Part shown: in pieces, positions 2,979 through 5,793 of the stretch
How the letters are laid out: each line of letters begins with the position of its first letter
Position numbering within the stretch: position 1 is the stretch's first letter
Assembly: GCF_003334785.1 (NCBI RefSeq)
Contig: NZ_QOWV01000041.1
Direction: 5' to 3' (one strand)
DNA from: Escherichia coli
Lineage (GTDB): Bacteria > Pseudomonadota > Gammaproteobacteria > Enterobacterales > Enterobacteriaceae
Length of the DNA: 5,793 bases
Position numbers and translations under genes: made by a program
Notes under the pieces: model-generated
Databases searched by the model: none
The model's input: the letters and a program-made list of their open reading frames with translations, nothing else
Told to the model about the DNA's origin: nothing

Positions 2979-3181
2979 GCGGTTCAGTCGCGGAAATCAG
3001 TTGCAGAGCTGTAATGATATCTCCGGGAGTGCTGCGTTGGTAGGGGCATCCCGGGATAGAGAAATTTTAGCACTTTGCCCTGAATGATTGTAGACGTCCC
3101 GAGTACTCGTACCGGTCTGAGTTATTACAGTTAGATATTCACTTTTTCTCCCGCATACTTCACATCTGTCAACGACGGATG

Positions 3182-3208
3182 AAAAGTGGTTCTTCCGCAA
3201 CCTGGGTG
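3182..3208 (+). repeat. Left terminal inverted repeat of the ISL3-family element
   Basis: AAAAGTGGTTCTTCCGCAACCTGGGTG at 3182-3208 matches the reverse complement of 4889-4915 (AAAAGTGGCTCTTCCGCAACCTGGGTG) at 26 of 27 positions. Confidence 0.75.
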
Positions 3209-3261
3209 GAAGAAAATGGATGAAACTTTCTGGCGAACAAGGATCTAAGCTGTTTTAAGTT

Positions 3262-4881
3262 ATGGGCAACGCAATGCACTCTCTTAAGACACTTCTACAG
3301 TTACCTTGCGGATGGCGATGCAGTCGACAAATTATTAGCTCTGACGGTATAACCCTCCATCTCCACGGAAAACGCAAAACAGCACAATGTCCTGAATGCT
3401 TTAAGCGTAGCGACTCTGTTCATAGTTGTCGTCGGCGCCGGATACAGCATCTACCCTGCTCAGGGCAGACGCTATGGCTTGTATTTTCCGTCCGCCACTG
3501 GTACTGCCGTAACCCGGCTTGTTCACGTAAAATTTTTGCCGAGTCGCTTGCTCCCTTCGCCAGTTCACACCAGCAGTCTTCACAGGCGTTACAAAATTAA
3601 CAACGTCAACTGGGATTAATAGCTGGAGGTGAGGCTGGAAAACGGGCTGCAACGGCAGTGGGTCTCCGTTGCAGTGCTGATACTCTTCTTCGCAGGCTTA
3701 TCAATACCCCGGAGACGAAACAGTCAGGCGCGCCTCATGTCGGTATTGATGAGTGGGCGTGGCATCGGGGCCACTGCTGCGGTATGTTAATAGTCAATCC
3801 TGATACTCACCGTCCCCTCGTCCTGCTTCCCGGCCGTGATCAGCGTACGCTGGCGACCTGGTTCAGAAAATATCCGGAAATACAGGTTGTCTCGCGTGAT
3901 CGCAGTGGAGTCTATGCGACAGCAGCACGTGAAGGTGCACCTCAGGCCAGACAGGTGGCCGATCGATGGCACCTGCTAAAAAATATTGGTGATGAGCCTG
4001 AACGAATGATGTACAGATATATGCCTCTGATACGTCTTGTTGTCAGAGAGTTATCACTGAAGAAATCACCTGAGCCAGAAATATCTGTGCCTGTAGCATC
4101 GCTCCGTCGTCTGGAACGCCTTAAACAGCACATCCGCAAAAAACGGCATCAGCGTTGGACAGAGGTTATGGCCCTGCATAACAAGGGATGTAGTTTCAGG
4201 GAAATATCCCGTATTACAGGCCTGTCGCGAGTGACAGTCAGTCGCTGGGTGGGTTCAGGAACATTCCCTGAAATGTCAACTAGGCCTCCAAAGCGAGGGC
4301 TTCTGGACCCATGGAGGGAGTGGTTAAAAGAGCAACGAGAATGTGGTAATTATAACTCCGGCCGGATATGGCGGGAAATGGTGGCCAGGGGGGTTACAGG
4401 CAGTGAAACCATCGTCAGGGATGCTGTTGCCAAATGGCATAAAGGCTGGATCCCACCGGTTACTACTGCCGCAAGACTTCCTTCAGTGTCCCGGGTAAGC
4501 CGCTGGTTGATGCCCTGGAGAATAATCAGGGGTGAAGAAAATTATGCTTTCCGATTTATTAGTCTGATGTGTGAAAAAGAACCGGAGTTGAAAATAGCGC
4601 AGCAACTGGTACTCGAGTTCTACCGTATTCTGAAAACCTAAAATAAATCACAGCTAAGCAGCTGGTTCACTCGGGTCCACGAAAGCGGCTCAGCAGAACT
4701 TCGGTGCGTAGCTGCGGGGATGGAAGCTGATGCTGCGGCTATATGTGAGGCAATCAGCAGTCGCTGGAGTACTGGTGTTGTCGAAGGTCATGTAAATCGC
4801 CTGAAGGTGCTGATACGCCAGATGTATGGTCGAGCCGGACTTGAACTACTTAGGCGGAGGGTAATGAGTCCACTGGCATGA
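3262..4881 (+). pseudogene. ISL3-family transposase, ~539 codons in a single frame, interrupted by two in-frame TAA codons (3598-3600 and 4639-4641)
   Basis: The track ORFs 3262..3600 and 3658..4641, plus the unlisted segment 4642..4881, are all in frame 1. Family-like sequence continues directly across both TAA codons (..QALQN*QRQLGLIAGGEAGKR.. and ..EFYRILKT*NKSQLSSWF..STGVVEGHVNRLK..). There is no frameshift. Confidence 0.8.
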
Positions 4882-4888
4882 AAATCTT

Positions 4889-4915
4889 CACCCAGGTTGC
4901 GGAAGAGCCACTTTT
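4889..4915 (-). repeat. Right terminal inverted repeat of the ISL3-family element
   Basis: CACCCAGGTTGCGGAAGAGCCACTTTT at 4889-4915; its reverse complement matches the left repeat. It begins 8 nt after the transposase stop (4879-4881). Confidence 0.75.
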
Positions 4916-4924
4916 GCACTGTTC

Positions 4925-5253
4925 GTGACAGTATGGCCTTTATGTACTCACTTTGTTACCGGTAGCTGGATCATCACTACCGTGCCGCAAATGGTGGTGA
5001 ACAGCATCAATTGTGGAATGAATGTTGCCGAAGCGACCAATGCGCCTCGTTTCCACCATCAGTGGTTGCCGGACGAGCTGCGTGTTGAAAAGGGTTTAGT
5101 CCGGATACGCTCAAGCTGCTGGAAGCAAAAGGTCAGAAAGTGGCGCTGAATGAGGCGATGGGCAGCACGCAAAGCATTATGGTTGGGTCGGATGGTGAGT
5201 TGTACGGCGCATCCGACTCGCGCTTGGTGGATGATTTAACGGCGGGGTATTAA
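4925..5253 (+). pseudogene. ggt: gamma-glutamyltranspeptidase 3' remnant, 5'-truncated at the IS and carrying a -1 frameshift
   Basis: Translation ..VTGSWIITTVPQMVVNSINCGMNVAEATNAPRFHHQWLPDELRVEKG, then after a frame change PDTLKLLEAKGQKVALNEAMGSTQSIMVGSDGELYGASDSRLVDDLTAGY* (stop 5251-5253), matches the GGT C-terminus as I recall it from E. coli. One T is missing from the T-run at 5095-5097. Relative to the remembered sequence there is also a probable 12-nt in-frame deletion (GSPGGSRII read as GSWII). The 5' boundary is approximate. Confidence 0.8.
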
Positions 5254-5292: not shown

Positions 5293-5715
5293 TTATGCGG
5301 TCAATAATCGTCCGGGATTATCGATACAGAGTTTTTTGAGGATCGTTTTATCGACGCCGCGCTCCGCCAGATAGGCCAGAAAAACATCTGGAACAAATCC
5401 CCAGCCATTACCGCCATTTTTAGCCCACATTTGTTTAAGGAAGACATCGTGGCTGAGAACAAGCTGATCGGCGTATCCCAACTCAATGAGATGAGCGACG
5501 GCATCGGCAGTCTCCTGCACCCCTGGCGCTATTCCCTCTTTCGGGAAGGTAATGTCTAGGCCAATCATGTCGAATTCCAGCCAGACACCTTTATCAAGCA
5601 TTTTCCGCTGATACGCCACGTCTTTTCCTGACGGATCCGAGTGTGCGAGAGAGACTTTATTTGGCGAGACGCCCATTTCACCTAACACAATGTCGAGTAC
5701 TTCGTAAGCGACTCG
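5293..5715 (-). pseudogene. Phosphotriesterase-family (PTE/Php-like amidohydrolase) gene, C-terminal ~140 codons only; frame closed upstream by an in-frame stop
   Basis: Minus-strand translation ..RVAYEVLDIVLGEMGVSPNKVSLAHSD..LVLSHDVFLKQMWAKNGGNGWGFVPDVFLAYLAERGVDKTILKKLCIDNPGRLLTA* aligns to the C-terminal half of E. coli Php-type proteins (..SMDIT..KANGGYGY..ENP..). An in-frame TGA at 5716-5718 ends the frame upstream, and no PTE-like continuation is seen in any frame of 5719-5793. The track ORF starts at GTG 5688. Confidence 0.7.
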
Positions 5716-5793
5716 TCAGAACCGTATTGATATTTACTGAGAGCTCAGATCAACTTTCCAGGGCAACAGATCGCGTACCCGGTTTGCCGGCCA

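Follow-up and report, generated by a model that had tools for sequence, protein, structure and literature searches.

The ISL3-family insertion sequence (IS) in the 5,793-nucleotide stretch of Escherichia coli DNA analysed here (contig NZ_QOWV01000041.1; the window) is very probably an old, fixed, dead and vertically inherited ISEc38-like relic, the transposase gene of which is an ordinary pseudogene. The window pseudogene is already known, being routinely annotated as an IS pseudogene in RefSeq, and the stop codons found at its locus (460, 113 and 88) are of use at most as phylogenetic markers for nested or separate E. coli lineages. The locus also offers a worked example of how recoding and decay can be told apart, with stop alleles present as single copies at a fixed site and sense alleles multi-copy and plasmid-borne. 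The point of wider interest is an IstA-like tandem helix-turn-helix (HTH) module situated inside the DDE domain of long ISL3 transposases.

The transposase reading frame and its stop codons

The transposase pseudogene occupies positions 3262–4881 of the window (+ strand) and translates as 539 codons followed by a terminal TGA, interrupted only by a TAA at codon 113 (3598–3600, +) and a TAA at codon 460 (4639–4641, +). A random run of 539 codons would contain some 25 stops, compared to the two observed, and the frame is therefore clearly the remnant of a gene. It aligns without gaps, over 1620 of 1620 nucleotides and at 94.7% nucleotide identity, to an intact gene annotated in RefSeq as 'ISL3-like element ISEc38 family transposase' (L006:1644–3263), indicating that the window copy has no frameshift. 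Translation and alignment thus bear out an initial annotation made from the sequence alone, which had described a frame of about 539 codons broken only by two TAA codons. The copy in NZ_AP022215.1, 100% identical over 1801 nt, is labelled 'ISL3 family transposase, internal stop' by RefSeq.

The same annotation had proposed inspecting intact copies for the codons at the two stop positions, and these could be identified. Both a plasmid-borne copy (L002) and the intact ISEc38 gene used for the alignment (L006) have TTA (Leu113) and CAA (Gln460), so that each stop is a single-base substitution, T-to-A at 3599 for codon 113, the younger lesion, and C-to-T at 4639 for codon 460, the older one. The window frame was also aligned, with X at both stops, to homologous proteins from E. 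coli, Salmonella, Enterobacter and Citrobacter that are intact and 539 aa long; these have Leu at position 113, with a single exception (Met), and Gln, Lys or Pro at position 460. The stop at codon 460 cuts off the catalytic Glu508 and the K/R motif (K515 and K518), all three of which are invariant among 37 distant homologues. The window copy would presumably be unable to transpose on its own; as a dead copy with intact ends, it could be mobilised in trans by an active ISEc38.

Alleles at both codons were surveyed in 5426 complete E. coli genomes with 41-nt queries centred on each codon, for which the 28-nt megablast seed was required to contain the allele. TAA113 was detected in 817 genomes (818 chromosomal places and 1 plasmid place) and TAA460 in 2632 genomes, in both cases at no more than two places per genome and nearly always on the chromosome. 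The sense alleles reach much higher copy numbers, with up to 11 places per genome for TTA113 (2281 of the 5426 genomes) and up to 12 for CAA460 (677 genomes, with 227 plasmid places). The junction between the right end of the IS and an adjoining ggt fragment, queried with window positions 4800–5060, recurs in 2647 genomes, a number essentially equal to the TAA460 count. The allele counts, the places per genome and the shared junction therefore assign the stop alleles to one fixed chromosomal locus. The sense alleles, being multi-copy and plasmid-borne, belong to an evidently mobile population.

Orthologous copies, decay and alternative explanations

Four copies representing three lineages were read at the shared locus, namely those of E. 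coli 042, ST131 strain 4224, the window and L001. The 042 copy carries stop 460 only, the ST131 copy carries stops 88 and 460, and the window and L001 copies carry stops 113 and 460; stop 113 is hence missing from the 042 and ST131 orthologues, and stop 460 is common to both. Strains 042 and ST131 belong to phylogroups D and B2. Copies with stop 460 only are also represented by the 459-aa gene-caller products P0101 (266 members) and P0103 (1381 members). Stop 460 is an old inactivation, because 042 and ST131 share it, and stop 113 is younger yet not recent, because 817 genomes carry it. The initial annotation had posited a recent inactivation by two independent sense-to-TAA changes, of which the substitutions themselves (TTA to TAA and CAA to TAA) stand; 'recently' has to be dropped in view of the spread of TAA113, TAA460 and the ggt junction through the complete genomes.

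The stops are also not the sole damage to the gene, as had been assumed. The core motif HRYGT of active copies has degenerated to HCCGM (aa 171–175; 3772–3786, +) in all four copies read at the shared locus, as evidenced by alignments, and this replaces Tyr173, a residue invariant in the 37 distant homologues (30–41% identity). The window copy additionally has Pro at the nearly invariant Leu180. Changes private to the window branch amount to 16 non-synonymous, 2 synonymous and 1 stop, and dN/dS lies between 0.5 and 1.9 among the relic orthologues compared to 0.3–0.4 against active ISEc38, ratios that derive from small counts in three orthologues. Both the branch counts and the relic dN/dS, small as the counts are, point towards neutrality. 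Taken alone, the ratio of 0.38 between the window copy and active ISEc38 was set aside as a test of selection since most of that divergence predates the inactivation; the counts for the window branch tell more, small though they are.

Two properties of a pseudogene are thus present at this locus: the premature stops sit at sense codons of intact, multi-copy relatives, and the lesions are nested or lineage-specific among orthologues at a single fixed site. Two observations count against the relic reading. The frame is unchanged in length and free of indels in the three lineages read, which differ by up to 34 nt, and this is somewhat unexpected in an old pseudogene; in other genomes the element shows length differences of 1–6 nt, and indels or partial deletions occur. 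Moreover, the existence of unstopped 539-aa versions (P0001–P0009) means that the lineage is not uniformly stopped. These rare full-length versions, most of them from single metagenome contigs, are 98–99% identical to the relic lineage. P0001 and P0003, the pair included in the alignment, combine HCCGM with Leu113 and Gln460, and the group may represent the unstopped ancestral state or revertants.

We infer the following order of events. An active element of about 1766 bp, with 43-nt inverted repeats and a 539-aa transposase, would have inserted a single time, in an ancestor shared by about half of the E. coli living today. Subsequent rearrangement of the flanks would have left the element without a target-site duplication and truncated ggt. 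Under relaxed selection, missense changes at invariant core positions (HRYGT to HCCGM) would have accumulated along with the CAA-to-TAA change at codon 460 and the consequent loss of the catalytic Glu508. Lineages would then have gained further stops separately, by TTA-to-TAA at codon 113 in the window lineage and at codon 88 in ST131.

Three other explanations for the interrupted frame were weighed against decay. Programmed stop-codon readthrough or recoding, by which both TAA codons would be read as sense to yield a low, self-limiting level of full-length active transposase, has a practically negligible probability in our view. Its sole point of support is that the frame stays open and family-like past each stop with no frameshift. 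Recoding would be recognised by a stop conserved in functional, mobile copies, and it is precisely the intact, multi-copy and plasmid-borne copies that have TTA and CAA, whereas the TAA alleles are limited to one fixed chromosomal locus. Orthologues at that locus differ in their extra stop (none, codon 88 or codon 113), a pattern of decay rather than conservation, and the window copy is also substituted at invariant core residues. TAA is the most efficient terminator in E. coli, and programmed UAA readthrough is not known in E. coli IS elements. The initial annotation had likewise judged stop-codon bypass unlikely and had named as contrary evidence a situation in which every copy carries the TAA codons and is nevertheless mobile; this was looked for, and the mobile copies in the surveyed genomes were found to carry sense codons instead. 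Sequencing or assembly error, which would make the stops artefacts and the real gene intact, scarcely deserves any credence. Nothing specific speaks for it beyond each stop lying one base from a sense codon, and the exact 41-nt TAA contexts recur in 817 and 2632 independent complete assemblies, in addition to the identical 1801-nt copy in NZ_AP022215.1.

We consider it very unlikely that a truncated product has been domesticated as a catalytically dead DNA-binding protein that represses incoming ISEc38 or regulates a neighbouring gene. Such a product could be the 112-aa zinc-ribbon fragment or, in those lineages where stop 460 stands alone, the 459-aa fragment containing both HTH modules. In keeping with domestication, the locus is retained in about half of the complete E. 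coli genomes, the frame has remained free of indels in three lineages, and stop 460 leaves every DNA-binding module in a single, very common 459-aa open reading frame (P0101, P0103). However, separate lineages shorten this 459-aa frame much further, at codon 88 or 113, non-synonymous changes far outnumber synonymous ones on the window branch (16 to 2), and the element has suffered indels or partial deletions in other genomes. Wide retention is moreover predicted equally well by a neutral relic in a vertically inherited island, the reading that we prefer.

Ends, classification and surroundings of the element

The relic is an ISEc38-like ISL3-family insertion sequence at positions 3166–4931 (+ strand), a fixed chromosomal element with ends that are shared across unrelated loci. 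Two copies at unrelated loci, one on a plasmid (L002) and one on another chromosome (L006), begin to match the window at 3165/3167 and cease to do so after 4930, from which it follows that the IS spans 3166–4931, about 1766 bp. The right end of the chromosomal copy is shorter than that of the plasmid copy, its match stopping at 4914. For the orthologous copies, the match with the window continues past the element ends and through both flanks. The left terminal inverted repeat (3166–3208, +), with the inner core GGTTCTTCCGCAACCTGGGTG, is 43 nt long and 81% complementary to the right terminal inverted repeat (4889–4931, −), the pair having come from a repeat search and its ends having been compared across loci. 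An alternative placement of the ends at the GG(C/T)TCTTCC core (3188/4913) was rejected because copies at unrelated loci share some 20 more bases on each side, and these additional bases are themselves inverted repeats.

At 43 nt, the repeats are unusually long, and they are bipartite, with an inner core GG(T/C)TCTTCCGCAACCTGGGTG that is well conserved and an outer part of about 22 nt that varies more. Comparison of the window, L005 and L006 ends revealed two versions of the outer part, TGTCAACGACGGATGAAAAGTGG and TGTCACGAACAGTGCAAAAGTGG, which swap between left and right ends from copy to copy. Judged from the repeat sequences, this bipartite organisation might mirror two DNA-binding modules.

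Elements of the ISL3 family generate an 8-bp target-site duplication according to the ISfinder and TnPedia descriptions. No such duplication was found beside the window element (cttcacat versus tatggcct) or beside the plasmid copy L002. The window element borders on a truncated ggt on one side and on island DNA on the other, so that its surroundings must have been rearranged after it inserted, and the missing duplication is uninformative with regard to family membership.

Membership of the ISL3 family, as stated in the initial annotation, is upheld by Pfam matches to both characteristic domains. An N-terminal zinc ribbon (aa 40–84; 3379–3513, +) matches PF14690 (Zn_ribbon_ISL3, E 1.5e-6), and its cysteines C43, C46, C82 and C87 are invariant. 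The DDE_Tnp_ISL3 domain (PF01610) is matched in two halves, the first (aa 160–249; 3739–4008, +; model positions 1–97, E 6.8e-15) including D163, D213 and the DRWH motif, and the second (aa 414–533; 4501–4860, +; model positions 117–239, E 1.8e-8) including Glu508 (4783–4785), which lies past the second stop. An intact homologue scores 374 bits against the NCBIfam model NF033550, for which the cut-off is 180. Terminal inverted repeats enclose a single transposase open reading frame, and equal ends are found at other loci.

Within the family, 'ISEc38-like' is a safe label for the window element on the basis of sequence identity. ISfinder usually treats elements as isoforms at 95% or more amino acid identity and/or 90% or more nucleotide identity. 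The window element is 94.7% identical at the nucleotide level and about 91% at the amino acid level to RefSeq copies named 'ISEc38 family', which were the set compared. It shares with ISEc38 an equally long 539-codon transposase that aligns without gaps, the long terminal inverted repeats, and the domain order of zinc ribbon, HTH and a split DDE domain with an inserted tandem HTH. It differs in having two nonsense codons and substitutions at invariant residues, in residing at a single fixed chromosomal site without a target duplication, and in a nucleotide divergence of about 5% that sets it apart as a distinct sublineage marked by HCCGM. Judged by these sequence comparisons, the window copy is probably no isoform of the plasmid and chromosomal copies of ISEc38 that are active at present. 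Literature searches on ISEc38 yielded nothing beyond resistome and mobilome surveys in which the element is listed.

To the right of the IS, RefSeq annotates the C-terminal part of a second gamma-glutamyltransferase gene (ggt), frameshifted and with a missing N-terminus (window 4932–5252), and the right end of the IS marks the break in this gene at the junction common to 2647 complete genomes. To the left is island DNA with two zinc-ribbon genes, an inovirus-Gp2-family gene and an AlpA-like regulator. In strain 042 the IS-bearing chromosomal island adjoins cobUST.

The two zinc-ribbon genes (2176–2583 and 2571–2978) are overlapping paralogues encoding proteins of about 135 aa with multiple CxxC motifs, annotated as 'putative zinc ribbon protein' and 'zinc-ribbon domain-containing protein'. 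The pair stays beside the Gp2-family gene in many copies of the island, and the region occurs at up to 27 places per genome. The AlpA-like HTH regulator (1295–1510, −) and the inovirus-Gp2-family gene (1446–1922, +) overlap head to head in the window. Strain 042 has about 1.7 kb between these two genes, including a gene of the Hha/YmoA family. Homology to 042 breaks at 1489–1495, which places a deletion in the window at this point, and comparison with the 042 sequence indicates that the deletion probably truncates both the AlpA-like and the Gp2-family genes.

Both ends of the window are formed by fragments of other insertion sequences. At the right, a phosphotriesterase-related gene (5293–5703, −) is cut off at 5703, and the last 90 bases (5704–5793) come from the interior of an IS66-like ISCro1-family transposase gene. 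As the phosphotriesterase-related gene runs on in L001, L007 and L008, the breakpoint at 5703 is specific to the strain of the window. At the left is a fragment (about 1–187/201) of the helper ATPase gene istB of the IS100kyp/IS21 family. A match at 186–222 is covered by an annotated DMT-family transporter gene, and L001 has a DMT transporter gene on the far side of the phosphotriesterase-related gene. The bracketing of a 5.5-kb segment by IS fragments on both sides suggests an IS-mediated rearrangement.

A helix-turn-helix module inside the catalytic domain

Approximately 165 extra residues separate the two halves of the DDE_Tnp_ISL3 domain. Generic Pfam HTH models match this insert only weakly, at aa 293–330, the HTH-like segment quoted in the initial annotation. 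Part of the insert (aa 300–401; 4159–4464, +) is a tandem HTH module homologous to HTH-1, linker and HTH-2 of the IS21 transposase IstA, as evidenced by several comparisons. Residues 303–398 of the intact protein match positions 2–104 of the NCBIfam IS21 transposase model (E 5.5e-16), and a single-sequence search retrieves the solved IstA of IS5376 (PDB 8q4d/8b4h, residues 12–107, E 1e-8). A profile of the 37 distant long-form homologues matches IstA residues 7–109 of the same structures with E 3e-22 at 25% identity. In IstA, HTH-1 (aa 1–39), a minor-groove-binding linker and HTH-2 (aa 55–104) together recognise a pair of conserved blocks within each of the terminal repeats (PMC10122671).

Structure prediction is consistent with this homology. 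The AlphaFold model (mean pLDDT 88, pTM 0.69) contains two three-helix bundles at aa ~283–332 and 349–393, which are predicted to follow the beta5/alpha3 part of the RNase H fold and to come before the all-alpha region leading up to the Glu508 helix. Foldseek superimposes the module on IstA (8b4h_A) with an rmsd of 3.5 Å over 99 columns.

The initial annotation had remarked that the internal HTH-like segment is larger than expected for an ISL3 enzyme. The ~165 additional residues confirm its size; the insert is, however, not peculiar to this element, being typical of the ISL3 subgroup with transposases of ~540 aa. A tblastn search with the insert alone retrieved long ISL3 genes in Klebsiella, Salmonella, Streptomyces, Roseomonas and Rhodococcus as well as genuine istA N-termini. 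In a representative library of 1.84 billion proteins, 1878 representatives of 50%-identity clusters match at E <= 1e-30, and the best full-length (non-fragment) matches, at 30–40% identity, are all about 520–600 aa long and align end to end. The insert is a property of the family and not of the window copy, and by these sequence comparisons the long form is a large and old ISL3 subgroup.

Canonical short ISL3 transposases (PF01610; NF033550, 370 positions) resemble the window type in the zinc ribbon, the DDE_Tnp_ISL3 core and the D..D..E(G)..K..K/R motifs. They lack the ~165 residues that the window type has between model positions 97 and 117, in the interval from the DRWH motif to the Glu helix. 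The likeness to IstA is confined to the tandem HTH module, which matches in both sequence and predicted structure. The module is N-terminal to the DDE domain in IstA, whereas it lies inside the catalytic domain in long ISL3 transposases; the ISEc38-type element furthermore has no IstB partner, and the two IS families are unrelated. By analogy with IstA, the module would be expected to bind DNA in ISL3 enzymes as well.

We tentatively propose, leaning slightly towards doubt, that the ~540-aa ISL3 transposases arose by domain shuffling between IS families, with an IstA-type module spliced into the middle of the catalytic domain, where it may act as a second, end-proximal DNA-reading head. Such a head would account for the unusually long (~43 nt) bipartite terminal repeats, the length of which hints that the module might bind repeated sequence motifs in the element ends. 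The embedded HTH could steer mechanistic studies of end recognition in ISL3 elements. No published description of an IstA-like HTH in ISL3 transposases was found in the literature searchable outside ISfinder, TnPedia and subscription journals, literature searches for structural descriptions of ISL3 transposases returned nothing relevant, and neither sequence nor fold searches of the PDB retrieved an ISL3 structure.

The best whole-chain fold matches of the model are the IS256-family transposase ISCth4 (6xg8_A, Foldseek E 4e-5) and the hAT transposase Hermes (E 7e-3), both of which likewise have an RNase H-like core broken by an alpha-helical insertion ahead of the catalytic Glu. With TM-scores of 0.2–0.3 and identities of 10–12%, these matches indicate a similar architecture only and not family membership.
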